64,000 nucleotides of DNA, from NCBI GenBank assembly GCA_035438745.1, contig DAORIX010000002.1, positions 1,830 through 65,829 of the forward strand, written 5' to 3'. Each line of letters opens with the position of its first letter. Positions within the stretch are counted from its first letter, which is position 1. The notes beneath the pieces were generated by a model. That model had not been told where the DNA came from. It saw only the letters and a program-made list of their open reading frames with translations, and did not search any database. Shown here in pieces: positions 8,683 to 51,613 of the stretch. The position numbers were made by a program, and so were the translations under genes. Source of the stretch: Minisyncoccota bacterium. Lineage in GTDB: Bacteria; Patescibacteriota; Minisyncoccia; Phycocordibacterales; UBA6065.

Positions 8683-9724
8683 CTTCGCCTTGTATTAAAA
8701 TATCCCGATATTTACTAATGTCTTCAAGAATAATACCGGTACCTCGAGCAACAGCGGTGAGCGGATCTTCAGCAATATGAACAGGAATTTTAATATGTTC
8801 ACTGATGAGCTCATCGAGTCCTTTGATAAGCGCCCCTCCTCCTACGAGATAAACACCTCTGTGCATAACATCGGCTAGAATTTCTGGAGGAGTTGTTTCC
8901 AAAACCTCTCGAATTGACTCAACGAGGTGATCAATAGACTGTGATATTGCCTCTCGAATATCATCGTCAGTTACCACTACTTCACGAGGAAGACCTGTGA
9001 CGAGATCCCTACCGCGAATAGAAGCTTCGTGTGATTCACGTCCTGGCACAACAACACCAATCGCAATTTTCACTTGCTCAGCAGTTTTTTCTCCAATCAA
9101 AATCTTAAACTCGTTTCGAATATACGACATGATGTCGGAATTGAGTTTGTCGCCTGCTATCTTGAGACTTTTTGAGCGCACAGCACCACCGAGAGCGATA
9201 ACCGCAATGTCAGTAGTACCACCACCGATATCAATAACCATATTACCGACAGGTTCGTGAATAGGTAACCTAATACCAATAGCTGCCGCCATAGGCTGTT
9301 CAACAACATGCACCTCGCGAGCGCCAGCGTTTCGTGTAGCATCTCTCACAGCACGAGCCTCAACGTTTGTAACTCCCGAAGGAATACCTACAACAACACG
9401 AGGTCCAAAAAAAGTACGAGATTTTTTCTGTGCTTTATTCAAAAGGTAGACAATCATTTCCTCTGCAACTTCAAAGTCAGAAATAACACCGTCGACAAGC
9501 GGTCGCACAGCCACAATATGTCCCGGTGTCCTACCGAGCATTTCTTTTGCTTGTGTACCTACAGCAACTACACGACCAGTTTTCTGATTTACAGCTACAA
9601 CCGAAGGCTCGTTAATCACAATGCCTTGGCCGTTTACATAGACGAGCGTATTGGCAGTTCCCAAGTCGATGCCAATATCATTCGAAAACATTCGATACAG
9701 TTTTTCTAGAAAAGGTAGATTCAT
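8660..9724 (-). CDS. mreB: Rod shape-determining actin homolog MreB
   Basis: 354 aa with actin-fold phosphate motifs (IGIDLGTANTLVYV, VIDIGGGTTDIAV). Confidence 0.9.
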   Translation of the reverse strand: MNLPFLEKLYRMFSNDIGIDLGTANTLVYVNGQGIVINEPSVVAVNQKTGRVVAVGTQAKEMLGRTPGHIVAVRPLVDGVISDFEVAEEMIVYLLNKAQKKSRTFFGPRVVVGIPSGVTNVEARAVRDATRNAGAREVHVVEQPMAAAIGIRLPIHEPVGNMVIDIGGGTTDIAVIALGGAVRSKSLKIAGDKLNSDIMSYIRNEFKILIGEKTAEQVKIAIGVVVPGRESHEASIRGRDLVTGLPREVVVTDDDIREAISQSIDHLVESIREVLETTPPEILADVMHRGVYLVGGGALIKGLDELISEHIKIPVHIAEDPLTAVARGTGIILEDISKYRDILIQGEDDLPPTK

Positions 9725-13942: not shown

Positions 13943-14956
13943 TTACCTCTTGGCGATAATAGTCTTTTTGTATACGTCGAGATGGTCCATAGCAATACCT
14001 GTCCCCTTCACCACACAATAGAGAGGATCTTCGGCAAGCACGGCCTTTACTCCAGTGCGACGAAACACGAGCTCGGGGAGATTGCGCAACATTGATGAGC
14101 CTCCTGTCATAGTAATACCCTGATCAATAATATCTGCTGACAATTCTGGCGGAGTTTCTTGAAGTACGTCTTTGATAGCTTTGATCATATCTCGTAGCTC
14201 CCTACTAATCGCTTTTACAATTTCATTTGTTTTTATTTCTGTTGAACGAGGAAGACCTGAAATAAAATCACGGCCTTTAATAGTCATCACGAGCTCCTCT
14301 TCGAGAGGCACAGCAGAACCGATCTGCATTTTTATATCCTCAGCAGTCTTGTCTCCGATAGCGAGATTGAATGTTTTCTTTATATAGTCGGCGATAGCCG
14401 CGTCGATTTTGTTACCTGCGCATTTTACAGACGTAGACGACACGATTCCTCCGAGAGAAATAACCGCCACATCAGTAGTACCGCCTCCAATATCTACGAT
14501 CATGTGACCCTTTGCTTCATGAATAGGAATACCCGCACCAATAGCCGCGAGAATGGGCTCCTTTACGACGTATGCATTTTTTGCCCCTGCGTTAATGGCT
14601 GCCTCTACCACAGCGCGTCTCTCTGTTGAAGTGATGCCTGCGGGTACAGAGACGAGAACTTCTGGTTTCCACAAATTCCACTTACCGAGAGCTTTGTCGA
14701 TAAAGTATTTGAGCATCGCCTCAGTCACACGATAGTCGGCAATCACACCGTCCTTCATTGGTCGGTACGCAATGATTGATTCTGGAGTACGTCCAATCAT
14801 TGATTTTGCATCGAGTCCCACCGCCAAGATTTTGTTGTCTTGCTCAGAAACAGCCACAACAGAAGGTTCGTTGAGTACAATACCTTTGCCCGGTACAAAC
14901 ACGAGCGTGTTTGCGGTTCCCAAGTCGATTCCAAGTTTTTTAGTAAATAATGACAT
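13943..14956 (-). CDS. Second MreB-like actin homolog (MreB/Mbl paralog)
   Basis: 337 aa with LGIDLGTANTLVFV, VDIGGGTTDVAVI and related actin-fold motifs. It is clearly paralogous to the gene at 8660..9724. Confidence 0.85.
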   Translation of the reverse strand: MSLFTKKLGIDLGTANTLVFVPGKGIVLNEPSVVAVSEQDNKILAVGLDAKSMIGRTPESIIAYRPMKDGVIADYRVTEAMLKYFIDKALGKWNLWKPEVLVSVPAGITSTERRAVVEAAINAGAKNAYVVKEPILAAIGAGIPIHEAKGHMIVDIGGGTTDVAVISLGGIVSSTSVKCAGNKIDAAIADYIKKTFNLAIGDKTAEDIKMQIGSAVPLEEELVMTIKGRDFISGLPRSTEIKTNEIVKAISRELRDMIKAIKDVLQETPPELSADIIDQGITMTGGSSMLRNLPELVFRRTGVKAVLAEDPLYCVVKGTGIAMDHLDVYKKTIIAKR

Positions 14957-26457: not shown

Positions 26458-26685
26458 CTACTTAATTAAAGCTAGGGCTATAAGTATTAAACTCAGCGCA
26501 AGTCCTACCGGTGCAAAAAGATACTTAGTTAATATCATAGTTTTCTCGATACCGAATATTTTCCTCCAAATATACGCTTTCGGACTTTCGGTTACATATT
26601 TTCTTGCAAACGTTTGATCAATGAAAAATCTTCCTGAAAAATACAAAGCTATGAAGCCAGTTATTATTAATACGATTTTTTCCAC
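26458..26685 (-). CDS. Small membrane protein (75 aa), uncertain
   Basis: Two hydrophobic helices. It overlaps an alternative plus-strand ORF (26378..26617). The strand choice follows the neighbouring operon direction. Confidence 0.3.
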   Translation of the reverse strand: MEKIVLIITGFIALYFSGRFFIDQTFARKYVTESPKAYIWRKIFGIEKTMILTKYLFAPVGLALSLILIALALIK

Positions 26686-26737: not shown

Positions 26738-27172
26738 CTATAAATTAGGTATTTTCAATATTTCTCTTACCCCTTTCCATTCCGGATCCCTTTCCATCCT
26801 ATAATCAAATTCTCTAGCCTGAGACCCACTTTCGATAATCTTGTTGAGCGTTGAAGAAATTGTTTGAGGGTTTGTAACATAGAAGAACAAACTCCTTATG
26901 CCGTTATGTGTAAATCGTCCGGCACGATACACCTCATCAACAGCTTTAAATTTGTGATATAGGTCGTCCTCCATATCATTCAGAATCTTATCTTCCATAT
27001 TCGATATTGAACCATTCTCAGAAACAAGAAGTTGGATATTAATACATAAAAACCAAGAAAGTTTTTCTTTAAATTTAGCTTTTAAATACCCTTCTGTAAG
27101 AATGAGATTCCATGGCAAATTATCCTTTTCTCCCTGATAAAGTTTGAACACATCCTGTTCAGTTTTTTTCAT
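26738..27172 (-). CDS. Candidate immunity protein for the RHS C-terminal toxin
   Basis: 144-aa cytoplasmic protein. Its start overlaps the RHS stop codon (ATGA). Position and size fit RHS toxin-immunity pairs. No recognizable domain. Confidence 0.5.
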   Translation of the reverse strand: MKKTEQDVFKLYQGEKDNLPWNLILTEGYLKAKFKEKLSWFLCINIQLLVSENGSISNMEDKILNDMEDDLYHKFKAVDEVYRAGRFTHNGIRSLFFYVTNPQTISSTLNKIIESGSQAREFDYRMERDPEWKGVREILKIPNL

Positions 27173-27173
27173 A

Positions 27174-30100
27174 TTATTTTATTCCAGTTATTCTCTTGAA
27201 ATTATTAACGAACGTCTCAACTTCCTTCTGTGAAATATTAAGGTAATTAGCTGCATTCTTGTTTGAAGGAGAGATGCCCCGAATCGCATTACCAGAACGA
27301 CCTACTGAATTGGCAACATCTTGCCCTATTTGCTCTAGCCCTCTGACCGTATTATATGAATTTGTTGAGTGTATAAGTCGTGCAGGTCCATATCCTTGCT
27401 CATTCATGTGATGAGTACGGTCTCTTTTTATTACATTTTTCTCGGGGATACTCTTACCACTTGTCCTTCCTGTATAAATTATATCGTCTTTCATTTTCGC
27501 ATATATTTCAAAACTTTTTTCAGCGACATTATCAACCTTATTTACAACCTTCGTAGTTCTCGCGACCACACCCACACCAGTTACTCCTGGTATTACCGCT
27601 CCAGCAACATCAAGGCTCAGATAGTTAAGTTCGGTGCGCACGTCTCCACCTGTAGCCATGGCTTCTCCAACTCTATACAAGTCATAGGCAATGAAACCAA
27701 TGTCAGCAATCGTATCAATTATTCTTCCGCTCGGATCTTTCAGTGTAACCGGATTATCACCCGCGTAAGCATATGAGTTCTGTAGTTGTGGGCTAGTAAG
27801 TACCCCCATACCATCATTAGTTAATCCAACTTCCCAAAACACCGGATCCTGTGAGAGGAATTGTCCACGAGCTCCCTCATAATATCGTGCATTCAGATAC
27901 GAGAGGTTATTTCCCTCATTCTCAAACTGCCCGATGAAACCACGATTTGAGTCTGTGCCATCTTCGACTCTCATAGATCCATACGGCATGTAATCCTTCT
28001 CTAGAATAACATCACCTGCCTCATTTGTTACAACATTTGTACTCTCTAAGTGGTCTGGGTGTACATAGTATGTTTTAGCTGTACCTGATGGGCTACCACT
28101 TACAATCGGTCTCTCTACATAGGCTATCAGAGTGTCTCCTGCCCAGATATATGAGGTTGAGGTGCCTGTTTGATATGTAGAGTCAGTATATTCGGCTGAG
28201 TAAAACTTATTTGGATAATGATGAACCTTGCTACCCACTGTTTCCGACATTCTGGCCATTGTGTGGTCGTATGTGTAGGCGGTAGTTGTACCTGTGGTTG
28301 TGGCTGATACGAGACGATTTAGGAAGTCCCAAGTATATGTAGTTGTGGCAGAACTAAAGATTGAAGAAGTAAGGTTACCATTGTTGTCATAGGTATACGT
28401 TGTTGATGCAGTTCCATCAAAATACTCGGAAGGAGCATGAGGATTGAGGTAACCTGAACCTGAATAGAGATAGAGAGACGAAGGTGCTGATTGGCTCACA
28501 GCAACATCAGTGGAGAATGTGGCACCGTTATTGTTCGTTAGATGATTTGCGTTTCCACTCGAATCTTGACCATTGCTATCGAGCTTCCACCAACCCTGAA
28601 GGCTGGAACCGTTTGAGAAATTATATGGATCACTGTAGAAGTTTCCGATTTCCGTTGATGTAAGCTTTCGAGACCATATACGAACATCATCCATGAGACC
28701 ATCGACATAGTATGTCGACACAGAATCAGTTTCCAACATCGCACCGATCGCTAATTTTCTAGCGCTATTATACAAACTTGTCACACTTCCTGTTTGCGTA
28801 CCCTGAGACACACCGTTAATCCATAGTTCGCCTACACTACCGGACCCTGTCCAAGTAAAGACTACATGCGTCCATGCACCTGTAGGAATAGTGCTCCCTA
28901 GTGTCCACGCGAGAGTTTCTTCATATGCGCCACTGCTCGATGGACGGAAGAACATCATGTGGGTACCACCAGCGTTGTACATATAGAGTTTATAAGACTC
29001 TTGGCTCGCATCTCCTTTGTGCACAAGGGTTTGTATCGTTCCGTTGTCAAAAGACTCAGGTTTTATCCATGCAGAAAAAGTGAGAACTGTACTCATGTCG
29101 AGACCTGTCTGAGAAGCATCTGCAATAGACCAAAACTGACTCGAACTTAATTCAAGGTCCGTTGAACGGAAGTTATCCTCTACTTGGTTTGAGAGAATTT
29201 TTTCTTTGAGATTTCCAATTTTGTTATATGAGTACAACTCTCTGAAAGAGACCGAGCTTGTGGCTGTTGTTGAAGCAGAGACAAGACGTGACAAGTCGTC
29301 GTACGCATAATTAACCTTGCGTGCTAGAGATGACGTTGCGGCCTCGATTATCGAAGTAATATTTCCAACAGAATCATAATAGTAGAGGATGTCTTGTAGT
29401 CGAGTGCCGTTTGCATTTGGGAAAGGATCCTCTATAGGGGGCAGTCCTGTATGCTCGATTACAAGTTTCGGATCCTCTGTCGTTCCCGTGGTATCAGCGA
29501 AAACAGTTTCAGCGTTGTATGATCTGTGATCACGCCAACCCGGACTGGTATTATCCAAATCAAGCCCGATACGAAGACCTAACCACGTATTACCAGATTT
29601 ATTTATATTTCCAAGTCCTGTTGAATTGAAGGGAAAATTATAATATTGTCTTGTTGAAATTGTGTTAATCGCTATCTCGGTATTTGACTGTCTGACACTA
29701 TCCCAGTTTGCAATATTATAATCATTATTCACAATAGCGTTTGAGCTTGCAGGACCATCGTGCTTATCAACCACAACTTTAAAGTCACCAGGATTTGTTC
29801 CTCCGCCCATTCCTGAATGCATAGTAACGCTTAATGTGGCAGATAAAATCATATCACTGTCGATGAGTGACGTGTTAAAACCAAATATGTTTCGTACTAA
29901 ATTTTGAAAATAGTAGTCAGCCACACGGATACCTACTTCACCCCCTGCACATGTATCACAAGAAATAACACCGTTTGAATCATGCGCCGAAGCCCAATCA
30001 CCAGAGCCATTCCAATACGCCATACCATCGACAGGTGATGCCTGACCTGCTGCTGAGTAAAAAGTACTCACTGTTTTTCCTTTTTTCCCTTTTATAATCC

Positions 30101-33100
30101 GCTCCGGACCGTGAATATTTTTCATCACAGAGAGATTATGTTCTATGACCTGCAATAGAGCCTCTCGAGGGTCTTCACGAAGGGTACGGACGTATTGTTT
30201 CTCCTCACCGGTAGATACATCTGTCTGCGTCCACTCTTGTCTAATGGTTCCACGCTCATCAGGCACAAGTATAGGAGGATTAAAGATGCGGAAACGCTCC
30301 ATGTCGACTGTACCATCAACACCAAACCCTATTCGTTTTCCTTTACTATCCCAAGCTCGAACAAAAACCTGAACACCACCCTCTATTGGCTCAACAGAAA
30401 CTATCTCAAATGTATAGTCCTTACGTTTCTCACGAACACCGCGAACAGCCTTTGCAATCTCCTCACCTTTAATGTTCGCACGTTTATAAGAACCCTTACC
30501 TTCAAGCAAAGCTCGGATCGAACCAGGCTCTGCAGGTGTAACGGAAAGTATTTTTTCAACAACTTTTGACTCAGTTCTCAAACGTGCTTCCGATGTACTA
30601 GCTGTGGTACTTGCTACCACAGGAACTATAAGAGGTTCAATTGGGACAATTGTTTTGTCATCAGAAACGACTTCATCTTGCGTCTCTACATCTGTTTCAA
30701 GTTCAGGTGGAGCGTCTTTAGGAATAAGCGCTTCCTCTGGAGTGACAGGCTCAGAAATCTCATTTGGAGAACTTTCATCAGAAGTTTTCTCTGTTTCTTG
30801 TGTAGAAACTTCGTCAGCAGAAACAGCGGGCTCGACTTGTGATGATTCAGGTGTTGGATTTGAAACATCTTCATTCGAAGGATTTTCTATCTCCTGAGCA
30901 TATACACTAGGAGCAAATAAAACTTGAGTAATTTCCTTGAGGCGTGATAATGCAAAATGAGACTTACTAGACGATTCACTTAGAGTCAAACCGCTTGTAT
31001 AAGTTGTGAGAATATTCACGAGGCGATACAGCGCATTAGAGTCATACGCATAATGTGTCTCGATACCATTAGCAAACTTTTTTGCCGCAAGTTTACCGTG
31101 TGGACCATAGTTAAGATCGGTGACGATCGGATTTCCTGCATGAGCAACAGAGTCGATTGTTCCAGCATTGTTATAGTTATAACCCTGAGTGACCCCGTTC
31201 GGAAGCGTAACCGTAAGCGGAGAGCCACGTCTATCGTAGGTATAACTCGTCGTATAAGTCTTATTCCCAATCTTTTTAGCTTCGCTATCAACATTACCTA
31301 AAATATCATAATCAAAAGTAGTCTGTGCAGAGGTACTCGACGCAACACAAAGACGACCGACTCCGTTGTCGCAACTATCATAGGTATATGTGTGCTCTGT
31401 GCCACTAGCTCCAGTATAATTTTCTGTGAGTTTGCGATTCAATGCGTCATAAGAATTTACTATGTTCTGAGCCTTAGGATCAGTACTAGATGCCAAATTT
31501 CCAAAAAGGTCATATGCATAGTTCCAAACCCCATAAGTGGAATCTCCTGATGCGTGTAGGTCTTGGGCGGTCGTGCGACGAGAAAGTCCATCATATGAGA
31601 ATGAACGAGTGTTACCAAGCGAATCGGTCATTCCCACTAAATTGTTGAGCGCATCGTGGGTATAACTCGTCGTATAGGTTTCTTCATCATTGTACTCAAC
31701 AACCGATGAAACATTACCGTAGGCATCTTTCTGTATGTCTTTTGGAACACCATTAGCGTCAGTTACCTTAACCTGCCAAGGGGTATACGCATACGTGGTG
31801 GTTCCAATAGATGTGGCAATCGATACAGGACGCTGCAAGGCATCATATGTGTAATTGGTATAAAGTGAAGATACATGAGTAGGAGAAGTACGCGCTGAAG
31901 TAGATGCAAAATACGGAAGGGACTCCTTCGCAAGTAAACCTGCACTACCGTAAACATAACTTTTAACTGAGTATCGATTGGTCATTTCTGCCTGAGAACG
32001 CTCCTGAATGACACGACCAAGACCATCACGATAAGTGTATACGTCTGTCGTGCTCGCGCTCGTTAAATATGTGCGAGTACGAGTGCTAGCTGGAAATGTA
32101 TCCGTATAAACATAATCTCGTAACACCTCAGTCAGAAGAGGGAATGAAGGATTAGTTTGGCGTTCCTCTTGTACTCGTCCAAGCGGTTCAAATACTGTTC
32201 TACGAACGGTACCGTTTTCATCTTCAACCCTTATTGGCTTGCCCACCATATAGTCATATTCATAATCAGTACCTTGGCTCAAAGCATTCGTAACAGTTTC
32301 TGGGTACAAATTAAATGAGTCATATGAATACGTCGTCGTATTGCTTCGGGGATCAGTCTCCGATGTGACTAATCCATATGAGTTATATGCTTTCGTCGTG
32401 CTTGAATAGTCACTTCCACTGATCCATTTTTCTTCTTTCGTTAAGTTGCCCTTGACCGCAGTACCAAGGGACTGAGTGTCGTAATACAAACGAGTAAGTG
32501 CAACAGATGTTCCTGAGTTGTCTTTGACCTCTTTCGTTGTAGGAAGAGTAAGATTTTTGCTTGTAGTTGCACTATAAGTAATAATCGTGGTACGTGTATC
32601 AGAACCAGTATTGCTATACGTTCCGTCAGACGATCCAGTCACTTCTCCCCTCTCAATTGACTGGAGAAGGTTGCCGGTTGTTGTTGAATAGGAGTATTCC
32701 GTCGCACGATCTTTGTGAGTTGATCCGCCTTCAAAATCCTGGACCGAGTCCGATGCAAGTCGTGTAAACCAATATGCGGGTGTAGGAGAAGATATAGTAC
32801 GACTTGGATTGAGCGCAATCACATTCTTGAGCATAGTTCCAGAGTTAGTACTCGAATATATGACGCTCTTCGCTCCAACGGCTCCGAGTCCCCCTCCGCT
32901 ATCCCAAGATTCTGTGTCTGAAGTCTGGATAAAAGCACCTGAGTTTACAGAATGGCTTCCTGCGGTTGATCCAAACACACCGACAAGCCATGCATTTGGA
33001 GTGTCGGTTGTGACTGTTGCTGTAACCGAAGTGCCTGAAATTCCACCCTCTGCATCGTACCAACCAAATGGATTTTCGGTATCAACACCTGAATACGAAA

Positions 33101-35873
33101 TTGCATGTGCTCCAAACCAGCCGTCTAACCCTCCTCGTGTCATCGTGAGGGTGTGAGTTCCCGTTGGAGGATTAAGTAAATACCACAAATTAACGTTTCG
33201 ATTGCTAGCCGCAGAAGCGCCAGCTCCAACCGGTGTCAGTGCAATACCATTATAAGTAACACCACTAACAAAGAGTCCGCCCTGAGAATCACCAATAACA
33301 AGGAGCATATTATCACTGCTACCTACCGTAAAACTATATGAATGAGACGAACCAGAAGCTACATTTGAAAACTGCGACGAGCCTCGAGCGATGTCAGTTG
33401 TACTGGTACTCGTCGTTGCACTTGTTATGTATTGGTCACTTGAATAAACATAGAATGATTTTTTGAGCGTTGTTGAGGCCATGCTCACAACATCTTCACG
33501 ATATTTTTTTCCAATGAGTGCAAATCCGTCAAGAAGCTCTCCTACGCTTGTCGAGGCCGTGTTGCCTTGATGGTAATAACTCTGTGTTGATCCGAGGCCA
33601 TCAAATCGATTGATTTTTGCAAACCCAGCAAATCGTCTATCTCTAGTGTTTGAAGGATTCAAATAAATTCTGCCACCCTCATACGTGTATGAGTAAGATT
33701 GTGAACCGCCAAAACCATCATTGTCTGTTAATTTTGTGACAACTAAAATTGAAAAAGGTAAGTCGGGATTCTGACTAGCCATTTGAGCCGAAAACTGATA
33801 TTCAATTTGAGTATTTCCTCCCGTACTTAAGCGACGGAATGTGAGCATGTCAGCCTTAGCTGTGCCACCCGAAGATACTGTGCTTTTTGTACTAGCGCTG
33901 TCGGGGATACCGTCTCCATTCCAATCAACGAGCTCGTTGTAATCTACACGTCCTGTCCATTGGCCTCCCGAAACCACCCCATTAAAGATATACTCTGGTA
34001 CCGTGAGAGATGATGTTGCGAATCCACCGCCCGTGTTTAGGTATACGTAATTGTAGCTTCCTGTTTGAATGTCTGTCACACCACTTGCCTTGGTTGAATA
34101 GGACGGCATATTGTATGACCTAATGTAGTCGAGGAGACCGTCACCATTCATATCTATGAATCGAATGCCTTTGTCCCAACCACCTGTCTGACGCACACCT
34201 GTGTTAATGGTCCATCTCGTATCAACAGAACCCCAACTAGATCCATTGTTAAGATAGAATTTGGTTGAACTTGCATCTGAGTACATCCAGTCGTCGAGGC
34301 CGTCTCCGTTAACGTCCACGAGTTGTGACATTGAAACGTCGGTTGCTGTGGTCGGCATTGCCGCAATAGGCGCAAAAGAACTTTTCACTCGCCAACCGTT
34401 CTCCAAACCACTATTGAGATAACTTCCATTAGCGGCACAGATTGTCGTTGTCGCCACATAATCAACAAGCCAGTCGCCGTTAAGATTTCCAAATAATCCC
34501 GTTGCAACACTCTCAGAACCATTCGCGCAACTAAAGAGTGGTAAACGAGATGGGGTTGCAGTGCTTGTCCAAGTGAAAGGAGCGGTGTTCTCGTAGTATC
34601 CTCGAGTAATAACACCACTTGAGTCACGATAGCTTCGTGCAATGTCTGCCTTACCATCCCCATTGAAATCAACGAGGCGGACACCGCGTTCTACGTATGG
34701 AAAATCATTTGATCCTCCGAGCCCAGAGTTGTCGTAGCTCCAAAATTCAGAAGAGACCGCCTGATTATATTGGGGAAAGTTGGGAAATTCATTCTCGTCT
34801 ACGATTCTGTGTGCGCTCGATGTTCCACTATTGCTCCAGAAGACTGCCTTATCAGGCAAACCATTACCATCCACATCGGCAACCATACGAGCACTGTTCC
34901 AAATCCGAGGATTGGTTGATGATGCGTATGTCGGTGTTGAAGTAGAGTATCCAAACGTAACAGCAGGCAAAGCGGCAGTATTACCGTCACTATCCCTTCC
35001 AGTTTCAATGGCTGAAATAAGAAGAGAGCGTGAACCATTGCTTCCACTTAAATAACCAAGAGTATACTTTCTTCTCCATTCATCATTTATGGATGCTTTT
35101 ACTTCTGTAAGACGCTTTGTTGTATTTACCCAAAATCCCGTTTCGTATGAAGTATAAACATCTGGACGTGTTTCGTAAGTGAAATCAACTTCAAATGGAC
35201 CGTCCGTTGTTCCGTTTCCGGTGTACGTAATTTTGGATGGGTAAATCTGATTACCGTCCTTTGTATATTCGAATTTTATGAAGTTGTCATTAGTATCTCG
35301 CACCTCCTCAAGCATCCAGCGATAAACATTATCAGGACTTGTCGTTGCCGACTGCCTAGACGCAGTGGTTGTACCGAAAGAGTATCGTGTGCCGCTTTTA
35401 TCAAATACGGTCCAAACGTTGTTTTGAAGACGGTAGGTAATAAAATTGCCATCCTCAAAGCGATGGCGATATCCTCCATTATTGTCCGATGGAACAAGTT
35501 CACCACCAAGAGATGAGGTAAAGTAGTTATCAATGTAGAGACGATCGGTTCCTATCTGATTCATGCGTGTGATAGACGGAATCGATAACTTCCAACCATA
35601 ACCATAAGGACTCTCACTTAAATCTTGACTGTTGTATGTAAGAGCAAGGTCTGGAGTAAGTCCCTTTCTTCCAGGTGGAACCTTAAACGAAATACTATCT
35701 GTGTATGCACCTTGATTTAAATCGACTCTCACTCTTCCAACACTAGCGCTAACAATATCTTCTCGCTCTTTTGCGTCCACAAGAGAGGGAGGAATAAGAC
35801 TGAGAACAAGATTACACAACACAAAAAGAACGATCGCTCGTCCACATCTGCGCAACGCTACAGTTGAGTACAT
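27174..35873 (-). CDS. Giant secreted RHS/YD-repeat polymorphic toxin, TcB-TcC (BC-fusion)-like
   Basis: 2899-aa uninterrupted ORF with a signal peptide and an SpvB/TcaC N-terminal motif (ISFKVPPGRKGLTPDLALTYNSQ). It has at least five FG-GAP-like calcium-binding repeats (VDVNGDGLPD, DFNGDGKAD, DVNGDGLDD, DMNGDGLLD, DWNGDGIPD). It has many YD repeats and a Glu/Pro/Ser-rich linker. It has a LamG/ConA-like jelly-roll (LTFSAWIKP ... ELWINGVSQG). The RHS core ends NPVTLKDPSGR at ~27723..27755. A unique 182-aa C-terminal domain follows. Confidence 0.85.
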   Translation of the reverse strand: MYSTVALRRCGRAIVLFVLCNLVLSLIPPSLVDAKEREDIVSASVGRVRVDLNQGAYTDSISFKVPPGRKGLTPDLALTYNSQDLSESPYGYGWKLSIPSITRMNQIGTDRLYIDNYFTSSLGGELVPSDNNGGYRHRFEDGNFITYRLQNNVWTVFDKSGTRYSFGTTTASRQSATTSPDNVYRWMLEEVRDTNDNFIKFEYTKDGNQIYPSKITYTGNGTTDGPFEVDFTYETRPDVYTSYETGFWVNTTKRLTEVKASINDEWRRKYTLGYLSGSNGSRSLLISAIETGRDSDGNTAALPAVTFGYSTSTPTYASSTNPRIWNSARMVADVDGNGLPDKAVFWSNSGTSSAHRIVDENEFPNFPQYNQAVSSEFWSYDNSGLGGSNDFPYVERGVRLVDFNGDGKADIARSYRDSSGVITRGYYENTAPFTWTSTATPSRLPLFSCANGSESVATGLFGNLNGDWLVDYVATTTICAANGSYLNSGLENGWRVKSSFAPIAAMPTTATDVSMSQLVDVNGDGLDDWMYSDASSTKFYLNNGSSWGSVDTRWTINTGVRQTGGWDKGIRFIDMNGDGLLDYIRSYNMPSYSTKASGVTDIQTGSYNYVYLNTGGGFATSSLTVPEYIFNGVVSGGQWTGRVDYNELVDWNGDGIPDSASTKSTVSSGGTAKADMLTFRRLSTGGNTQIEYQFSAQMASQNPDLPFSILVVTKLTDNDGFGGSQSYSYTYEGGRIYLNPSNTRDRRFAGFAKINRFDGLGSTQSYYHQGNTASTSVGELLDGFALIGKKYREDVVSMASTTLKKSFYVYSSDQYITSATTSTSTTDIARGSSQFSNVASGSSHSYSFTVGSSDNMLLVIGDSQGGLFVSGVTYNGIALTPVGAGASAASNRNVNLWYLLNPPTGTHTLTMTRGGLDGWFGAHAISYSGVDTENPFGWYDAEGGISGTSVTATVTTDTPNAWLVGVFGSTAGSHSVNSGAFIQTSDTESWDSGGGLGAVGAKSVIYSSTNSGTMLKNVIALNPSRTISSPTPAYWFTRLASDSVQDFEGGSTHKDRATEYSYSTTTGNLLQSIERGEVTGSSDGTYSNTGSDTRTTIITYSATTSKNLTLPTTKEVKDNSGTSVALTRLYYDTQSLGTAVKGNLTKEEKWISGSDYSSTTKAYNSYGLVTSETDPRSNTTTYSYDSFNLYPETVTNALSQGTDYEYDYMVGKPIRVEDENGTVRRTVFEPLGRVQEERQTNPSFPLLTEVLRDYVYTDTFPASTRTRTYLTSASTTDVYTYRDGLGRVIQERSQAEMTNRYSVKSYVYGSAGLLAKESLPYFASTSARTSPTHVSSLYTNYTYDALQRPVSIATSIGTTTYAYTPWQVKVTDANGVPKDIQKDAYGNVSSVVEYNDEETYTTSYTHDALNNLVGMTDSLGNTRSFSYDGLSRRTTAQDLHASGDSTYGVWNYAYDLFGNLASSTDPKAQNIVNSYDALNRKLTENYTGASGTEHTYTYDSCDNGVGRLCVASSTSAQTTFDYDILGNVDSEAKKIGNKTYTTSYTYDRRGSPLTVTLPNGVTQGYNYNNAGTIDSVAHAGNPIVTDLNYGPHGKLAAKKFANGIETHYAYDSNALYRLVNILTTYTSGLTLSESSSKSHFALSRLKEITQVLFAPSVYAQEIENPSNEDVSNPTPESSQVEPAVSADEVSTQETEKTSDESSPNEISEPVTPEEALIPKDAPPELETDVETQDEVVSDDKTIVPIEPLIVPVVASTTASTSEARLRTESKVVEKILSVTPAEPGSIRALLEGKGSYKRANIKGEEIAKAVRGVREKRKDYTFEIVSVEPIEGGVQVFVRAWDSKGKRIGFGVDGTVDMERFRIFNPPILVPDERGTIRQEWTQTDVSTGEEKQYVRTLREDPREALLQVIEHNLSVMKNIHGPERIIKGKKGKTVSTFYSAAGQASPVDGMAYWNGSGDWASAHDSNGVISCDTCAGGEVGIRVADYYFQNLVRNIFGFNTSLIDSDMILSATLSVTMHSGMGGGTNPGDFKVVVDKHDGPASSNAIVNNDYNIANWDSVRQSNTEIAINTISTRQYYNFPFNSTGLGNINKSGNTWLGLRIGLDLDNTSPGWRDHRSYNAETVFADTTGTTEDPKLVIEHTGLPPIEDPFPNANGTRLQDILYYYDSVGNITSIIEAATSSLARKVNYAYDDLSRLVSASTTATSSVSFRELYSYNKIGNLKEKILSNQVEDNFRSTDLELSSSQFWSIADASQTGLDMSTVLTFSAWIKPESFDNGTIQTLVHKGDASQESYKLYMYNAGGTHMMFFRPSSSGAYEETLAWTLGSTIPTGAWTHVVFTWTGSGSVGELWINGVSQGTQTGSVTSLYNSARKLAIGAMLETDSVSTYYVDGLMDDVRIWSRKLTSTEIGNFYSDPYNFSNGSSLQGWWKLDSNGQDSSGNANHLTNNNGATFSTDVAVSQSAPSSLYLYSGSGYLNPHAPSEYFDGTASTTYTYDNNGNLTSSIFSSATTTYTWDFLNRLVSATTTGTTTAYTYDHTMARMSETVGSKVHHYPNKFYSAEYTDSTYQTGTSTSYIWAGDTLIAYVERPIVSGSPSGTAKTYYVHPDHLESTNVVTNEAGDVILEKDYMPYGSMRVEDGTDSNRGFIGQFENEGNNLSYLNARYYEGARGQFLSQDPVFWEVGLTNDGMGVLTSPQLQNSYAYAGDNPVTLKDPSGRIIDTIADIGFIAYDLYRVGEAMATGGDVRTELNYLSLDVAGAVIPGVTGVGVVARTTKVVNKVDNVAEKSFEIYAKMKDDIIYTGRTSGKSIPEKNVIKRDRTHHMNEQGYGPARLIHSTNSYNTVRGLEQIGQDVANSVGRSGNAIRGISPSNKNAANYLNISQKEVETFVNNFKRITGIK

Positions 35874-36011
35874 AAAAAATAGAGATTAAAAAATATAAAC
35901 TCAATTCACCCTACGTTCAACACTAAAACTATACCACTTGAGCTTATAAGAAGCATAAGGGTTTATCCACCTCATATACTTTCATCATTTAACGAAGCCC
36001 AGTTTGGTTAT

Positions 36012-36490: not shown

Positions 36491-37252
36491 ATGCTTGCTT
36501 TCATAGATGAGACTGGGGACCATAATTTAAACATGAAGACTGTTGATAATAACTACAATATTTTTGTATTGTCTCTGGTTCTCATTAGAAAAAAGGACTA
36601 TAAGAAGATAGACATGGGGTTTAAAAAGATAAAAAAAGATATATTTGGAGACGAGAACTTTATAATCCACACATGGGAATTAACACATCCAACGCACAGG
36701 AAATCAGACAAACGTAATGGAATAATGCGTGTCCATGAAAAAAGAGAAGAATTTTATAAAAAAATGAATGACTTTATCGAGTCGTCGTTAATAAAGACGT
36801 GCTTCACGGTAGTTAGAAAACTACATTTTGCTGGTAAATATGTATTTCCGTCGGATCCATATGAATTATCTTTTGAAAATCACCTAAACAGAATTTTACA
36901 CTACTCTAGTGGTGATGATATAAGTATTTATGCGGAATCTAGAGATGATGCTTTGGATAAGAGTCTTTTAGCAGAATATACTAAATATTCAATTAAAGGG
37001 GTATGTTTCCACGACTCAGAAAAAATGAAGAGAATAAAGGAATTCAATATAAAAAGCAAAAAAGAAAATATCACAGGACTTCAGATAGCAGATTTACTAG
37101 CAAGTCCAGTAGCAAGACATTTTTTAAATATTAAACCTAGACCAATAGGAAACGAAATACCTTATTCATTAGTAAGAAAAAAACTAGCAGGAAATATAAA
37201 GTTATCCATAACAATTATTCCAGATGATGCAGAGATTAACCTATTGAAATGA
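36491..37252 (+). CDS. DUF3800-family protein
   Basis: 253 aa. The N-terminal FIDETGD and later GLQIADLLA resemble the conserved IDESG and LQxAD motifs of DUF3800. Confidence 0.55.
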   Translation: MLAFIDETGDHNLNMKTVDNNYNIFVLSLVLIRKKDYKKIDMGFKKIKKDIFGDENFIIHTWELTHPTHRKSDKRNGIMRVHEKREEFYKKMNDFIESSLIKTCFTVVRKLHFAGKYVFPSDPYELSFENHLNRILHYSSGDDISIYAESRDDALDKSLLAEYTKYSIKGVCFHDSEKMKRIKEFNIKSKKENITGLQIADLLASPVARHFLNIKPRPIGNEIPYSLVRKKLAGNIKLSITIIPDDAEINLLK

Positions 37253-37605: not shown

Positions 37606-38271
37606 TTACATCTGAATGAGCTCTAACTGTAACTTTGCTTTTAAAACCTCAAACTCTGCAATCTTTTTATCTAAAAGAACTTGAGGGGGTCTGATTGTAG
37701 GTGATTTCTGCCAATTTTCATTACAAGAAGATGGATTACTAGTGCATATTTCTTTATCGTAATCGCCCGCACGGACCCTACTGATTTCAAGATCCATGCT
37801 CGCAATTGCGGCAAGCGTTGCCTTTTTCTGCGCCTCAGCTTGGGTTAAAGACGCCTCCAACTGTTTGATCCTTGCCTGTAGCTTTTCTAAATCAATAAGA
37901 CATTGATTTGGTGTTCCTTGGAGTTCTTTAATCTTTAATTTAAGAGAGTTATTTTCATCAATTACTGATTGGTCCGGCTTAATTACAATCTTTTCAACAA
38001 TCCGGTCCACTGGCACTGTAACTGTTTTGATTACCGCCCTTTCGATAACCGTTGATTCCGGTACTATCACAGAAGATGAAGTAGCGGTTGTTTCAGGAAC
38101 TTCATTATGTTCATTAACACTTCTCTTAAGATCACCTGCATCAACCCTAAGCTCTGGAATATTTTTTATTTCGTTTTGCACAAACCAAGTACGTGGATTC
38201 CACCATTCTGCATGAACAATAGACGGAAGGAGAATCGCCCCCAGAGATAGCACTATTATTTTATTTTTCAT
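37606..38271 (-). CDS. Secreted coiled-coil protein
   Basis: 221 aa with a signal peptide, a Val/Ile/Pro-rich repeat region and a long coiled coil (LKLKIKELQ ... LEASLTQAEAQKKATLAAIASMDLEISRVRAG). Confidence 0.55.
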   Translation of the reverse strand: MKNKIIVLSLGAILLPSIVHAEWWNPRTWFVQNEIKNIPELRVDAGDLKRSVNEHNEVPETTATSSSVIVPESTVIERAVIKTVTVPVDRIVEKIVIKPDQSVIDENNSLKLKIKELQGTPNQCLIDLEKLQARIKQLEASLTQAEAQKKATLAAIASMDLEISRVRAGDYDKEICTSNPSSCNENWQKSPTIRPPQVLLDKKIAEFEVLKAKLQLELIQM

Positions 38272-40156: not shown

Positions 40157-41761
40157 ATGAGAAATAAAGCTATTACTTATTGTAGAGTATCCTCTAAAGA
40201 ACAAGAAGAAACTGGTTATTCTCTTGATGCTCAAGAAAAACTATTAAAAGAGTATGCTGAAAAAAAAGAATGTGAGGTCACTAAGGTGTTTCGTATCTCT
40301 GAATCCGCAAGTGGAAAACAAATCAGGAAAACATTTAACGAAATGCTCGCTTACATGGAGAAAAACCACGTACCTGTTTTACTCTGTGAAAAAATAGATC
40401 GCCTTACCAGAAACCTAAAGGATGCCGCGACTGTCAGTGACTGGTTACAAGCTGATCCTATACGAGAAATTCACTTTGTTAAAGAAAACTTTGTAGTAAA
40501 CAAAAATACTCGTGCTCATGAAAATCTTGTTTGGGACATGAAGGTTGCCATTGCGCGCTTCTATACAAACAATCTATCAGAAGAGGTTAAAAAGGGGCAA
40601 GCAGAGAAAATTTCACAAGGCGGCCTCCCTACTAAACCACCTATTGGATACAAGACTATTGGAGAAAAAGGCCACAAGGTCCATGTTTTAGATCCGGACA
40701 AAGCACCTTTTGTAAAAAGAATGTTTGATCTTTACGCTACTGGGAACTACTCAATGACCAGCCTCAGAGAAGAGTTACATACGGAGGGTTTTCGAATGAG
40801 ATCCGGAAAAAAGGTTATGAAAAGTAAATTTGAGCAAATGCTTAAAGACCCTTTCTATTACGGTGCTTTGAGATGGAATGATGTCATATATCACAATGGA
40901 ACACATGAACCGATTATCTCAAAAGAAACGTTTGATAAAGTTCAAGATATAAGAACAAAGAAAAAAGCACCTAGTTACTCAAGACATTCTTTTCAGTTTA
41001 GAAAGATGTTCAAGTGTGGAGAATGTGGTGGAAGCGTCACCGCTGAAATACAAAAAAACATCGTCTATTACCATTGTAATCATTATCGACCTTGCTCTCA
41101 AAAGAAATACACTCCTGAGGAAAAGCTTGAAGAGAAATTATTTGGTGTATTCAAGTTTTTTGAAACCATTACAGTAGAAGAAGCAGAAGAAATAAAGGCC
41201 AAAATCAAGCTAAACCACTGCCAGGAAATCGAATATAAGGAAAACACCATTAAAGCCCTGAACGAACGGTATAACACGCTACAAAGACGGTTAGACAACC
41301 TTTATAACGACAAGCTCGATGAGAAAATCACACGCGAGTTCTGGGAAAAGAAGCAAGCTGAAATAACAAATGAGCAAAAAGCTATTCAGGACCAGCTTTC
41401 TCGCCTCAAAGGCGAAGAAGCGAAGTATTTTGAAATCTGGCTCAACATCCTAGATCTCGCTCGTCGAGCCGGCGAGATCTACAAGAAACGATCACCAGAG
41501 GAGAGGCGTTTACTTTTGAGTCATATTTTTTCGAACCTGGTCCTAAAAGACGAAACAGTGACTCCTACTCTCAAAGCTCCAGTCCAGAAACTTGCTGAAC
41601 GTGTCCAACAACGACTAGACGCCGAAAAGACTTTCGAACCAGATAAAAACGGCTCTATAAAAACACAAAAAGGTGCTCTCGCACCCCTTGTGTCCAACTA
41701 TGCTCCGGGAGAAGGGATCGAACCTTCGACCAATCGCTTACGCTTACCCTCTCATTACTGA
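40157..41761 (+). CDS. Large serine recombinase (resolvase catalytic domain, recombinase domain, zinc ribbon and coiled coil)
   Basis: 534 aa with N-terminal ITYCRVSSKEQEETGYSLDAQ (catalytic Ser). It has a recombinase domain, a zinc ribbon (CGECGGS ... YYHCNHYRPC) and a C-terminal coiled coil. The last ~20 codons overlap the tRNA-Asn 3' exon on the opposite strand. Confidence 0.85.
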   Translation: MRNKAITYCRVSSKEQEETGYSLDAQEKLLKEYAEKKECEVTKVFRISESASGKQIRKTFNEMLAYMEKNHVPVLLCEKIDRLTRNLKDAATVSDWLQADPIREIHFVKENFVVNKNTRAHENLVWDMKVAIARFYTNNLSEEVKKGQAEKISQGGLPTKPPIGYKTIGEKGHKVHVLDPDKAPFVKRMFDLYATGNYSMTSLREELHTEGFRMRSGKKVMKSKFEQMLKDPFYYGALRWNDVIYHNGTHEPIISKETFDKVQDIRTKKKAPSYSRHSFQFRKMFKCGECGGSVTAEIQKNIVYYHCNHYRPCSQKKYTPEEKLEEKLFGVFKFFETITVEEAEEIKAKIKLNHCQEIEYKENTIKALNERYNTLQRRLDNLYNDKLDEKITREFWEKKQAEITNEQKAIQDQLSRLKGEEAKYFEIWLNILDLARRAGEIYKKRSPEERRLLLSHIFSNLVLKDETVTPTLKAPVQKLAERVQQRLDAEKTFEPDKNGSIKTQKGALAPLVSNYAPGEGIEPSTNRLRLPSHY

Positions 41762-42319
41762 AAGGAGCGGACTATATCATTCTCGTGATCCACCTCTGGA
41801 CCTTACGAGACGAGGGGCTTCCCATCTGCCCCGTGGCAGACAGTACTCCTAAAAAGGATAGTCTCTACACCCTCCCTTCAACCTCACTCAAGATTTACTT
41901 TGAGTTTTCGTCAAAGGGCTCGGCTCGGGATTGCCCACACATGTGGGGTTCCCCGAATTCACCTCGTTTTCGACCAAGCTTTCACTTGGAAGCTGCATGA
42001 TGCCCGCACCAACCTCTCTGTGGCAATTCGCGCACAAAAGAATACATTTATCGAGCTCTGCTTTTACCTTATCCCATGAACGCGTATAACCCTTATCACC
42101 AATCCCGAATCCTTTTTCTTCTTTTTTGATATGGTGAAGTTCTAACGCGCCTTGATATTTATTGTATCCACAGATCTGACATTTGCCTCCTTTGTACTCA
42201 ATAGCCAAAGATTTGATTTTTTTGCGTCTTTTAGAAACCGCACGAATCAAAGCTTCGCGTCGATCGGCATATTTTCTTCTGTCTGGCATTACTTTAATAA
42301 TACCACCAGAAAATCGTTT
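41741..42319 (-). mobile_element. Group I intron (~579 nt) carrying an HNH homing-endonuclease ORF
   Basis: The 3' part of the intron contains the paired P7-type elements AGAGACUA ... GAUAUAGUCCGCUCC. These are close to the Tetrahymena CAGACUA ... AUAUAGUCGGACC core. The intron ends in G before the 3' exon and follows an exon U. Confidence 0.7.
41888..42289 (-). CDS. HNH homing endonuclease encoded within the group I intron
   Basis: 133 aa with HNH motifs CQICGYNKYQGALELHHI ... LLCANCHR. Confidence 0.8.
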   Translation of the reverse strand: MPDRRKYADRREALIRAVSKRRKKIKSLAIEYKGGKCQICGYNKYQGALELHHIKKEEKGFGIGDKGYTRSWDKVKAELDKCILLCANCHREVGAGIMQLPSESLVENEVNSGNPTCVGNPEPSPLTKTQSKS

Positions 42320-49377: not shown

Positions 49378-51567
49378 CTACCTACCCAATCTATAGAGCT
49401 GTTTTGCTTCGTCGACAGAGAGCACTCTGTTATATACGCGAACTTCATCAATAGCTCCATCAAATGTTCGTGCAGTATCAGCACGATTACCTATAACCAA
49501 ATCGAGAGAAGCATCGGATCCGGCAGAATCAGTAGCGCCAGCAACAACAGTATGGTACGAAATTTCGACACCGTTCCTATAAATACGTGATCCTGAGTTG
49601 TTATAGCCGGTAGATCCATCCCATGTAACCATAAAATGTTGCCACTCGCCTATAGTAAAACTATTACTTGCACCGCAACGTCCCGCTCTCGCGGTAGCAG
49701 TAGAACCTACTTTTATAAAATATATAGCATTTGTAAGACTTGCTTCTCCAGCGAGACAACCAGCACCTGTAACTAAAGTAATCTGCCATTGGCCAGCAAC
49801 ACCAATATTTCCATTCTTTGCTACCACACGAGATTGATTACCCTCACCTGCAGAATTTGGTTTAATCCAAAAACTAACACTCATAGGAATGAGGTCGTCG
49901 AGAGAACTCGCTGAACCAGCATTCACAATATCGTCCACCGCATCAAAACGTAGTGCCTGACCTGATTTTCCTGGAACAGGAGATGTGGTGGTACTCATAC
50001 TTGTAATCACCGCGTTACTGTTACGACCAGAACGATCGTATGCGATATTATTCGCCCAACTGATGTCAGAACCATTAAATGACCAGTATCCCACGAGACC
50101 GTCAGTAAATCTATTTTGTTGTGATGAGTTAATAGCGGTCTGATTTTGATTGTAGAGTGCCTGTACTTCACTATCAGAAAGTGCCCTACTGTACACGCGC
50201 ACATCGTCTATTTTTCCAGGGAAAAATCGTCCTGGAGTACCACTGATATACGCTCCTCCAATAGCAGCATTGGCTGAAGAACTCTGTGCACCCACAGCTT
50301 TTACAGCACTTGCCACCAATACACCATCGACATATAACACCCAAGATGTCCCATTATAAAGTCCGACAACATGATGCCATGTGTTTATCGGAAAATTAAT
50401 ATTCCAAGAAGTACCGTAGTCGATCGAGGGACCGAAAGTCAGAACCTCCAACTTTGCGGGACTGCCACTATAGCGTAAAACGTATGCTTCTCGAGTACCA
50501 TCAAATCCCTTCTCCATAATTATACCGCAGTAGTTAGCGCAACCATTATTGTTCGATGGAAAAGAACTAAAATTGACCCACGCAGACAATGTTATTTGTC
50601 CCGTAATATTAAGCGCAGACGGATTACCGAGAGCGATAAAGTCATCTGTACCGTCAAAATCCAAAGCCTTGCCTTTCTTTCCTCCTACCCAATCAGTGTG
50701 TGGAGCCATGTTGGTGAGAGTTCCATGAAGGCTATTACCAGAAAAATCATGAGCGATAGTAGAAGTACCTTCGTCAAAAGACCAGTGTCCGACAAGTCCT
50801 CTGTTTGAAACAACCTTACGAGTCACCTGACCGTTTGAGTAGAGTGCCTGAATTTCATTGAGAGATAGAGCTCTGTTATAAATACGCACGTCGTCTATTT
50901 GAGCACTGACATACCCGTCATCACCAGTACCCACTCCAGCTCCGATAGCAACCGCTCCTCCGTTGTTCATACTTCCCATACTCGCACCCGACGTTGCAAC
51001 AAGAACTCCATCATAATAAAGGAGTGCATTAGAGCCGTTTGAAACACCGACAATGTGGACCCATTTGCCTGTTTGAGGAAAAGGTCCGATAGCCCACTGG
51101 TTTTCAGCACCTCCCTGCCTACCAAAACGCATACCAGTACCAACATGAGACCAAAAGGCATATGAGCCAGAAGCTTTCGACAAAAGATCGCCGTCATCCC
51201 ATACAGAATCTTTGACCCACATAGAAATAGTCACTGTGCTCGAAATGTTGAGCCGGCCTTGAGAATCAGTCACAGAAACATACTCATTTACACCATCAAA
51301 ATCGAGTGCCTTTCCCCTTTTACCGTTTATCCAGTCGGTTGCCTCCATGTTGTTGAGGTTTCCGTTTTGACCAAAACCAGAAAAATCATGAGCAATAGTC
51401 CCAGCACTTTCATCAAAAGACCAGTAACCCACAAGACCGAGGTTTGATGGCGGTTTAGAGAAAGTTCCAGCATGAAGAGGTAAAACCATCAACAAGTAAC
51501 TTGCCACAACAAAACCAAATACAAAGGTAAATCGAATTTTTTTGCTATGTAGTAGTGAGGAAAACAT
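49378..51567 (-). CDS. Secreted protein with three LamG/ConA-like lectin-fold repeats
   Basis: 729 aa with a signal peptide. It has three repeats of GLVGYWSFDE..GT.A.D.SG...G...NM....DW..GK.GKAL.FDG.DD.V........W.H.V......LY.DGV.......IDDVR.YNRALS..E...LY. Confidence 0.7.
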   Translation of the reverse strand: MFSSLLHSKKIRFTFVFGFVVASYLLMVLPLHAGTFSKPPSNLGLVGYWSFDESAGTIAHDFSGFGQNGNLNNMEATDWINGKRGKALDFDGVNEYVSVTDSQGRLNISSTVTISMWVKDSVWDDGDLLSKASGSYAFWSHVGTGMRFGRQGGAENQWAIGPFPQTGKWVHIVGVSNGSNALLYYDGVLVATSGASMGSMNNGGAVAIGAGVGTGDDGYVSAQIDDVRIYNRALSLNEIQALYSNGQVTRKVVSNRGLVGHWSFDEGTSTIAHDFSGNSLHGTLTNMAPHTDWVGGKKGKALDFDGTDDFIALGNPSALNITGQITLSAWVNFSSFPSNNNGCANYCGIIMEKGFDGTREAYVLRYSGSPAKLEVLTFGPSIDYGTSWNINFPINTWHHVVGLYNGTSWVLYVDGVLVASAVKAVGAQSSSANAAIGGAYISGTPGRFFPGKIDDVRVYSRALSDSEVQALYNQNQTAINSSQQNRFTDGLVGYWSFNGSDISWANNIAYDRSGRNSNAVITSMSTTTSPVPGKSGQALRFDAVDDIVNAGSASSLDDLIPMSVSFWIKPNSAGEGNQSRVVAKNGNIGVAGQWQITLVTGAGCLAGEASLTNAIYFIKVGSTATARAGRCGASNSFTIGEWQHFMVTWDGSTGYNNSGSRIYRNGVEISYHTVVAGATDSAGSDASLDLVIGNRADTARTFDGAIDEVRVYNRVLSVDEAKQLYRLGR

Positions 51568-51613
51568 TTTTTAAAAAATAACTCTTTTCATTTTAACATG
51601 CCAACCTTTCAAA

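Follow-up and report, generated by a model that had tools for sequence, protein, structure and literature searches.

A 64-kb stretch of a Paceibacterota genome (hereafter the window, i.e., the whole stretch of DNA analysed in this work) harbors on the reverse strand one unbroken open reading frame (ORF) of 2899 aa (27174..35873, -), which probably codes for a polymorphic toxin of the TcdB/TcaC class, a single-chain Rhs "cocoon" exported by Sec, with a predicted nuclease tip and with a DUF695 protein as its candidate immunity partner; we infer its mode of working from these parts. A previous reading of the same DNA from its letters only (hereafter the original prediction) had implied that the architecture was novel. 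This was overstated, since a class with this architecture was catalogued in 2012, and the toxin family to which the tip can be assigned is on record too. The class, named TcdB/TcaC, is a trafficking class among polymorphic toxins and was defined by the presence of a signal peptide, SpvB, an integrin-like propeller, RHS repeats and a toxin, Tox-URI1 being among its cargoes (Zhang, de Souza, Anantharaman, Iyer, Aravind 2012, Biol Direct 7:18; PMC3482391). Furthermore, an earlier paper on a Saccharibacteria genome noted an RHS/YD toxin of 2487 aa that has lectin-type domains and lies beside an immunity gene (PMC6031116).

The protein shares with the TcdB/TcaC class the signal peptide, the SpvB domain, the integrin-like beta-propeller, the RHS repeats in the middle and a C-terminal domain differing from one close homologue to another, together with an adjoining gene in the immunity position, which in this case is a candidate (DUF695). 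It differs from the class in having three extra modules in the shell and in lacking any of the listed Tox-URI1 partners (Imm14/26/44/51), the immunity position being occupied by DUF695; moreover, its host phylum, Patescibacteria, is absent from the 2012 list. The new points are thus modest, and consist of a recurrent, unannotated, phage-like module of CBM96 fold in the shell, of DUF695 as a candidate Tox-URI1 immunity protein, and of the Paceibacterota setting.

A single TcB-TcC-like cocoon

The N-terminus of the Rhs protein (residues 1–34; 35772..35873, -) is signal-peptide-like and, judged by eye, of the Sec type, with an RR..R start, the hydrophobic core AIVLFVLCNLVLSLI and a VDA|KE end. 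Residues 9–30 represent the sole strongly hydrophobic window of the whole protein (the only one exceeding 1.8 on the Kyte-Doolittle scale), and VDA|KE follows directly, in agreement with the secretion proposed in the original prediction. The SpvB/TcaC N-terminal domain (residues 48–330; 34884..35732, -) was retrieved with Pfam PF03534 (E 1.1e-19), and phmmer matched it with residues 39–118 of YenB. It is followed by an FG-GAP (integrin-like) beta-propeller (residues 331–646; 33936..34883, -), recognized in four stretches by FG-GAP_3 (PF13517, E 1.6e-12); the profile of the Rhs family described below aligns with YenB 337–800, and four calcium-type motifs, DxNGDGxxD, lie at residues 402, 520, 574 and 650. 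The TcdB middle/N-terminal region (TcdB_toxin_midN, PF12256, E 8e-9) spans residues 647–815 (33429..33935, -) and is kept in 117 of the 119 listed homologues. RHS_repeat was found in eight stretches (E 5e-23). Overall, each domain named in the original prediction (SpvB, FG-GAP, RHS repeats, Rhs core, and LamG) was recovered by the Pfam and hidden Markov model (HMM) searches.

To compare the protein with known cocoons, a family profile was built from 15 insert-free homologues of about 2000 aa. This profile matched the TcdB2-TccC3 fusion chains with E 1e-56, YenB/TcdB1 with E of about 1e-26 (YenB 1.6e-26) at profile positions 333–821, in the propeller region, and YenC2/TccC2 with E from 1e-24 to 1e-29 (YenC2 8e-27) at positions ~1375–1800, in the C-terminal shell; weaker matches were obtained with Tse15, other Rhs proteins and teneurin. 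Because the profile matches all of these chains, the family can, as far as sequence comparison goes, be taken as firmly homologous to the TcB half of the BC cocoon as well as to the TcC half, and the single-chain TcB-TcC-like Rhs protein of the original prediction is well founded.

The YD/RHS shell is distributed over three stretches of the protein. The first one (residues 999–1631; 30981..32879, -) corresponds to RHS_repeat matches and to positions 848–1484 of the profile; the shell resumes at residues 2154–2255 (29109..29414, -), contiguous with residue 1631 in profile coordinates, and the last stretch, delimited by domain, homologue and profile comparison, covers residues 2426–2627 (27993..28598, -). 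The whole protein aligns to the profile as three collinear pieces (profile positions 115–876 with residues 48–815, 848–1484 with 999–1631, and 1479–1921 with 2154–2855), and the profile coordinates run on across both gaps. Homologues devoid of the second insert have the first YD stretch running straight into the following one. Since the coordinates are continuous and the YD stretches abut in insert-free homologues, the Rhs protein is, according to this alignment, a single cocoon core of some 1850 residues interrupted by three insertions, named I1 (816–998), I2 (1632–2153) and I3 (2256–2425). The two YD-repeat shells of the original prediction are therefore one continuous shell, and the insert of about 180 aa at residues 816–998 had escaped it.

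The same parts (SpvB, FG-GAP propeller, TcdB-mid, YD shell and Rhs core autoprotease) make up the TcB-TcC cocoons of Photorhabdus (TcdB2-TccC3; 4O9X, 6SUF) and Yersinia (YenB-YenC2; 4IGL). Natural TcC tips are reported to be almost all smaller than 40 kDa (PMC7861908), and the tip described here, of about 20 kDa, lies inside this range. However, the target is a single chain where those cocoons have two, and it possesses a Sec signal of its own (by eye) and a shell core about 300 residues shorter, is accompanied by no TcA in the scanned ORFs of the window, and carries a nuclease-like cargo with a candidate immunity gene instead of a eukaryote-directed enzyme.

As for the integrity of the gene, an identical protein is present in NCBI as "SpvB/TcaC N-terminal domain-containing protein" of a Candidatus Paceibacterota bacterium, from a metagenome-assembled genome (121.9-kb contig), and the GC content of the gene (0.43–0.44) is near that of the remaining window. 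The order of its domains recurs in several homologues (P0002, P0003, P0007). Moreover, an independent Logan assembly (SRR1145916) contains the last 312 aa of the protein, the next gene and further downstream genes with 100% identity. Because homologues share the order of the parts and the independent assembly reproduces the 3' end, an assembly chimera or a frameshift as the origin of the 2899-aa ORF is very unlikely, and the giant can be taken as intact. Promoter and terminator scans gave counts equal to those of shuffled controls, and no further copies of I1, I2, the tip or the DUF695 gene were found within the window.

The modules inserted in the shell

Sequence and structure comparison revealed that the inserts are three beta-sandwich modules, placed at sites that bear inserts in homologues too. 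I1 (32880..33428, -) resembles phage minor tail proteins, matching two PHROG families with that annotation (phrog_553, E 1.5e-10, and phrog_2106, E 1.4e-7); it retrieved no match from Pfam, no sequence match from the PDB and none from IMG/VR, and matches with GenBank phages were marginal only. The same site holds a LamG domain in the homologues P0003/5/8/9/10.

I2 is the largest insertion and lies in a hairpin between LYRLVNILTTYTSG and GTRLQDILYYYD. This site is a hot spot, where homologues have either nothing or inserts of about 140 to 860 aa. A location of I2 at the TcB|TcC junction was considered and rejected, the site mapping about 100 profile positions inside the TcC-like part. The insert begins with a linker rich in Glu, Ser, Thr and Pro (residues 1632–1810; 30444..30980, -), recognized by composition and homologue comparison. 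The acidic Glu/Pro/Ser linker of the original prediction is indeed strongly acidic, with a net charge of -20 over residues 1651–1810. Its sequence (~180 aa) is unique, and scans of Pfam, NCBIfam and PHROG gave no significant match; linkers of similar composition, 80–146 aa long, precede the module in about ten homologues.

The I2 module proper (residues 1811–2153; 29415..30443, -) is composed of an N-terminal alpha/beta sub-domain of about 115 aa and of a beta-sandwich of about 225 aa, and 37 of the 119 listed homologues have it in the corresponding position (in P0018 it is followed by an Ig_Rha78A_N domain). This region had been described as some 350 aa of unknown fold; its structure was instead predicted with confidence (pLDDT 86.9, pTM 0.88, from a 20-sequence alignment), and the beta-sandwich of the model matches CBM96/DNRLRE modules, such as the alginate-binding 7VBO, the chondroitin-sulfate-binding 8WAB and those contained in phage tail proteins. 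It differs from them in its extra N-terminal sub-domain and in lacking a match at the sequence level (no DNRLRE or CBM match in NCBIfam or Pfam); in addition, no significant PHROG match was obtained for the module. We thus regard the likeness of the predicted model to CBM96/DNRLRE as a resemblance of fold, with family membership not demonstrated.

Searching with a profile of the I2 module retrieved at least 381 proteins, mostly stand-alone (median 390 aa) and lacking Pfam annotation, many of which are encoded on 25–50-kb contigs; the profile had no sequence match in the PDB, nor the module any in GenBank phages. In addition, 26 IMG/VR viral contigs carry the whole module in ORFs of about 350–825 aa (33–43% identity). 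A structure search of BFVD retrieved, as best matches, uncharacterised viral proteins of similar size (E 5.5e-17), followed by phage tail, tail-fibre and CBM96 proteins. The I2-module loci are flanked by large co-directional ORFs, some with weak matches to phage "tail fiber", "virion structural protein" or "lysin", and by other neighbours such as Peptidase_M23 and DnaB. Thus, a ~340-aa module devoid of a Pfam model gains both a fold and a wide distribution, in Rhs homologues, stand-alone proteins and viral contigs.

Stand-alone proteins of ~330–650 aa (L083, L084, L098, P0273–P0392) are encoded within series of large ORFs that point in one direction, lack annotation and have neighbours of phage type. 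A hydrophobic, signal- or lipoprotein-like N-terminus is found in about 40% of the stand-alone proteins, and the others begin with a conserved hydrophilic helix; for this reason, the module appears to serve secreted proteins of cells as well as phage-like proteins.

By BLAST, the RHS-embedded copies of I2 are interleaved with stand-alone and viral copies, and for 11 of 20 the best match is a copy that is not RHS-embedded. On the basis of this sharing and interleaving, one might speculate, with considerable doubt, that a BC cocoon without TcA has, on repeated occasions, received receptor-binding modules of phage-tail type in its permissive loops, so that the Rhs toxin would find its victim via the receptors used by the phages of that victim. 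If this were true, targeting modules would be exchanged between the toxins and the phages of Patescibacteria or of the hosts of these, and host range would be set by the shell inserts and not by TcA.

The third insert, I3 (28599..29108, -), is an ordinary LamG domain, i.e., a LamG/concanavalin-like jelly roll, as had been recognized from the sequence (Laminin_G_3, PF13385, residues 2258–2409, E 2.1e-23). It is 26–32% identical to the LamG units of two neighbouring ORFs (49378..53779). These (49378..51567 and 51614..53779, -) are adjacent paralogues with three Laminin_G_3 domains each (E ~1e-71) and form, with a 3163-aa ORF and a 185-aa ORF, a co-directional cluster of surface-protein genes.

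Rhs core, toxin tip and candidate immunity protein

The Rhs-associated core (the aspartyl autoprotease plug) spans residues 2628–2717 (27723..27992, -) and was recovered with TIGR03696 (residues 2628–2716, E 1.7e-13, positions 1–75 of the 76 of the model); it ends with the NPVTLKDPSGR motif (residues 2707–2717) already pointed out in the original prediction. A PxxxxDPxGL-type signature of aspartyl autoproteases has been described for Rhs and TcC proteins (PMC8636562). The core retains R2663, D2676 (SQDP) and D2713 (in the terminal motif), which correspond to this signature, and cleavage is predicted.

The 182 residues after the core are made up of a hydrophobic pre-toxin segment and of a Tox-URI1-type domain. 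The former, Gly-rich and without a Pfam match (residues 2718–2784; 27522..27722, -), is common to five homologues, at least two of which (P0072, P0094) have clearly different tip sequences. Since it is shared by homologues whose tips differ, the segment is taken to be a separable module.

The tip itself (residues 2785–2899; 27177..27521, -) is a predicted nuclease of the Tox-URI1 type (GIY-YIG/URI-like), assigned through its motif residues, a family search and the published catalogue (PMC3482391). The Tox-URI1 signature consists of Y, YxG, R, [RK]xxE and N in this order (PMC3482391). The tip harbors Y2791, Y2800-T-G2802, R2817, H2821, R2844-G-L-E2847 and N2862, that is, all five motifs in the expected order, and the conserved residues of its family are Y, YxG, R(x3)H, RxxE and N. 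No significant sequence match with residues 2785–2899 was found in Pfam, NCBIfam, PHROG or the PDB. The match with the GIY-YIG/URI fold is weak, and the hhalign comparison of the tip family with I-TevI was non-significant, the RExx helix alone being aligned.

An exhaustive profile search retrieved 2026 cluster representatives of the tip family with E<=1e-3, 773 of them at E<=1e-10; the family size rests on this search, a word-indexed protein search with the tip having given 2 matches. The domain is located at or near the C-terminus in most clusters, in proteins of 123–3041 aa, some of which are Rhs, DUF6443 or PT-HINT proteins; such a C-terminal placement in varied proteins is the usual pattern of polymorphic toxin tips. 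Among the listed homologues of the Rhs protein the C-terminal domains are diverse (VanY/M15, ribonuclease, Tox-ART-HYD1, Tox-GHH, Tox-REase-9 and more), and only one of the 119 shares the target tip over most of its length, with a second matching more weakly. The comparison therefore bears out the polymorphic tip that the original prediction had anticipated.

Scanning genomes with the tip gave 204 loci from many phyla, 80 of which were retained for the analyses of the tip loci; the target tip is 38–48% identical to these 80 genomic members (tblastn E from 1e-20 to 4e-25 for the top 25). An ORF stands directly after the tip in 77 of the 80 loci, mostly of ~140–175 aa and starting at, or within a few bases of, the stop codon of the tip. 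As many as 69 of these 77 ORFs belong to one family, the five members tested all matching Imm26, which is a listed partner of Tox-URI1 (PMC3482391). TepC, a T6SS (type VI secretion system) effector neutralised by Imm26, is a Mg2+-dependent DNase (PMC10833071).

In the target locus the corresponding gene, which the original prediction had missed, codes for a DUF695 protein of 144 aa (26738..27172, -; PF05117, E 2.8e-14, 54 bits against a gathering threshold of 23.1), and starts 1 nt past the stop codon of the toxin. We consider it a candidate immunity gene and rate this assignment as likely. Two of the 77 post-tip ORFs, from a Flavobacterium and from Nannocystis exedens, are DUF695 proteins similar to that of the target (phmmer E 1e-17 and 1e-7). 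In N. exedens (L053:4321-5112) the protein encoded after the Tox-URI1-type Rhs tip is a fusion of DUF695 with RraB (regulator of ribonuclease activity B), and this fusion in such a position hints at DUF695/RraB-like proteins as nuclease inhibitors. DUF695 is unmentioned in the searchable literature, and it gains here a testable role, that of a nuclease immunity protein. The proteins encoded downstream of the tips in P0027 and P0054 were considered as possible DUF695 relatives and discarded, being dissimilar and of the Imm26 type instead; likewise, the idea that DUF695-linked tips form the subgroup nearest to the target was dropped, no such grouping being found.

Directly after the DUF695 gene there is an ORF of 75 aa with two hydrophobic stretches (26458..26685, -), also called as a gene in an independent assembly (L113); its membership in the toxin system is uncertain. 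No orphan tip or immunity cassettes were found downstream of the Rhs gene.

Proposed working, alternatives and gene neighbourhood

According to the preferred reading, the Rhs protein would be exported by Sec, and its shell would then fold round the tip of about 20 kDa; the core would autocleave after residue ~2717, leaving the tip free within the shell. The three inserts would stick out from the shell and attach to glycans or proteins of an adjacent cell, taking over the targeting/receptor-binding job that TcA has in ABC toxins. The tip would leave the shell, pass the target membrane, possibly aided by the hydrophobic pre-toxin segment, and cut DNA in a metal-dependent way, and the DUF695 protein would bind the nuclease and thereby keep it blocked in producer cells and their kin. 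The nuclease-like tip and the immunity-type gene after it make an interbacterial effector more probable than an insecticidal toxin, a preference that the original prediction had also expressed; a host-attachment device, the other option named there, is conceivable. These data support the view that Paceibacterota, in spite of their tiny genomes, spend about 9 kb on an interbacterial nuclease weapon.

A similar working is found in the Sec-dependent Rhs/WapA-type contact-dependent toxins of Gram-positive bacteria, to which the protein is likened by description and not by sequence. WapA of Bacillus subtilis has a signal peptide, RHS repeats, a C-terminal nuclease and a cognate immunity gene located directly downstream; it differs in its N-terminal wall-binding repeats and in having no SpvB/propeller plug. 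The T6SS Rhs effectors (Tse5, Tse15, Rhs1/Tre23, and Salmonella Rhs) share with the target a YD shell enclosing the tip and a C-terminal aspartyl autocleavage (PMC8636562), whereas their N-termini bind PAAR/VgrG and they are fired by the T6SS. No PAAR/VgrG-linked N-terminus was detected in the Rhs protein by Pfam, and no T6SS, T7SS or other secretion-system domain in the scanned ORFs of the window (T6SS and T7SS domains were also missing beside two homologues). Similarly, a TcA-type domain was found neither in the scanned ORFs of the window, as the original prediction had stated, nor in ~10 kb of the left flank or in the flanks of two homologues.

Several points weigh against the reading just outlined. 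No translocation device was identified in the scanned ORFs, which raises the question of how SpvB-propeller Rhs cocoons without TcA deliver their cargo. The core motif ends with DPSGR in place of DPxGL, and its DP motifs are 37 aa apart instead of 17. Outward placement and ligand binding of the inserts are what we infer from their fold alone. Lastly, DUF695 is rare as a partner (2 of the 77 other loci), neither a Tox-URI1 nor an RHS gene was found upstream of 19 metagenomic DUF695 relatives, and the family shows no general link with toxins.

Among the alternatives, the one that survives best, which we consider possible albeit clearly less probable, is that the same toxin is aimed at the host bacterium of an episymbiont, as a parasitic or predatory effector, the immunity gene guarding against self-intoxication only. 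The prevailing view of Patescibacteria is that they live on host bacteria, to which they are attached (PMC13622651), the window encodes other large surface proteins with adhesin-type domains, and a nuclease would be effective on any cell. Nevertheless, a polymorphic tip with an immunity gene is the signature of conflict among relatives (PMC3482391), and the I2 module is shared with viral contigs of unassigned host.

It is rather unlikely that the tip is a toxin other than a DNase, i.e., an RNase or a domain with another activity on the beta-beta-alpha-beta-alpha scaffold. The weak fold match would leave room for it, and DUF695, being related to the RNase E regulator RraB and fused to RraB in the N. 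exedens locus, would fit an RNase target; on the other hand, the order of the motifs is that of the published Tox-URI1 signature, whose partner is Imm26 (PMC3482391), and an effector paired with Imm26 was shown experimentally to be a DNase (PMC10833071). A main role as an adhesin, with the cell fastened to a partner by the propeller and the lectin-like inserts, and with the tip reduced to a vestige, would account for the three putative ligand-binding modules, the long flexible linker and the neighbouring genes for LamG-rich and fibre-like surface proteins. We judge this role improbable, as the autoprotease residues of the core, all five tip motifs and the tightly coupled downstream gene are intact, and the protein has neither a C-terminal cell-wall anchor nor a membrane segment besides the signal peptide. 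Least probable of all is a role as the BC component in an ABC (Tc) toxin of the classical type, with a TcA encoded elsewhere docking on the propeller and injecting the tip into eukaryotic cells: in spite of the clear TcB and TcC homology, including the propeller that gates onto TcA, and of the inspected DNA amounting to the 64-kb window and ~10 kb to the left of it, no TcA-type Pfam match turned up in the scanned ORFs or beside two homologues, a Sec signal (by eye) is part of the protein itself, its tip is nuclease-like and has an adjacent immunity-type gene, and the TcdB/TcaC class is described as TcA-independent (PMC3482391).

As regards the remaining genes, the left half of the window embeds housekeeping genes (PBP2, MreB/C, MraW, aminoacyl-tRNA synthetases, and MurA-like). 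In particular, two MreB paralogues (8660..9724 and 13943..14956, -), two PBP2-type transpeptidases (179..1879 and 5906..7612, -) and MreC represent a full rod-shape gene set in a Paceibacterota genome. The second giant ORF (54337..63828, -), the 3163-aa member of the surface-protein cluster, has a YadA_head repeat (residues 658–682) and a Peptidase_S74 intramolecular-chaperone domain (residues 2858–2908), and looks like a trimeric fibre or a tail-spike-like surface protein.

Immediately upstream of the Rhs gene there is a low-GC stretch (~36000–40000; 0.34–0.36 compared to 0.41–0.45), which holds a DUF3800 protein (36491..37252); just past it lies a large serine recombinase (40157..41761, +), and the two together may represent an integrated element. 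A Group I intron match (RF00028; 41748–42020, -), just above the gathering threshold with 51.7 bits, overlaps the 3' end of the recombinase ORF and an ORF on the opposite strand (41888..42289, -), in a window that has no rRNA or tRNA gene. Finally, a LOOT RNA motif (RF03000; 38329–38446, -), scoring 87 bits against a gathering threshold of 46.4, stands directly upstream of a 221-aa ORF without a Pfam match (37606..38271, -).

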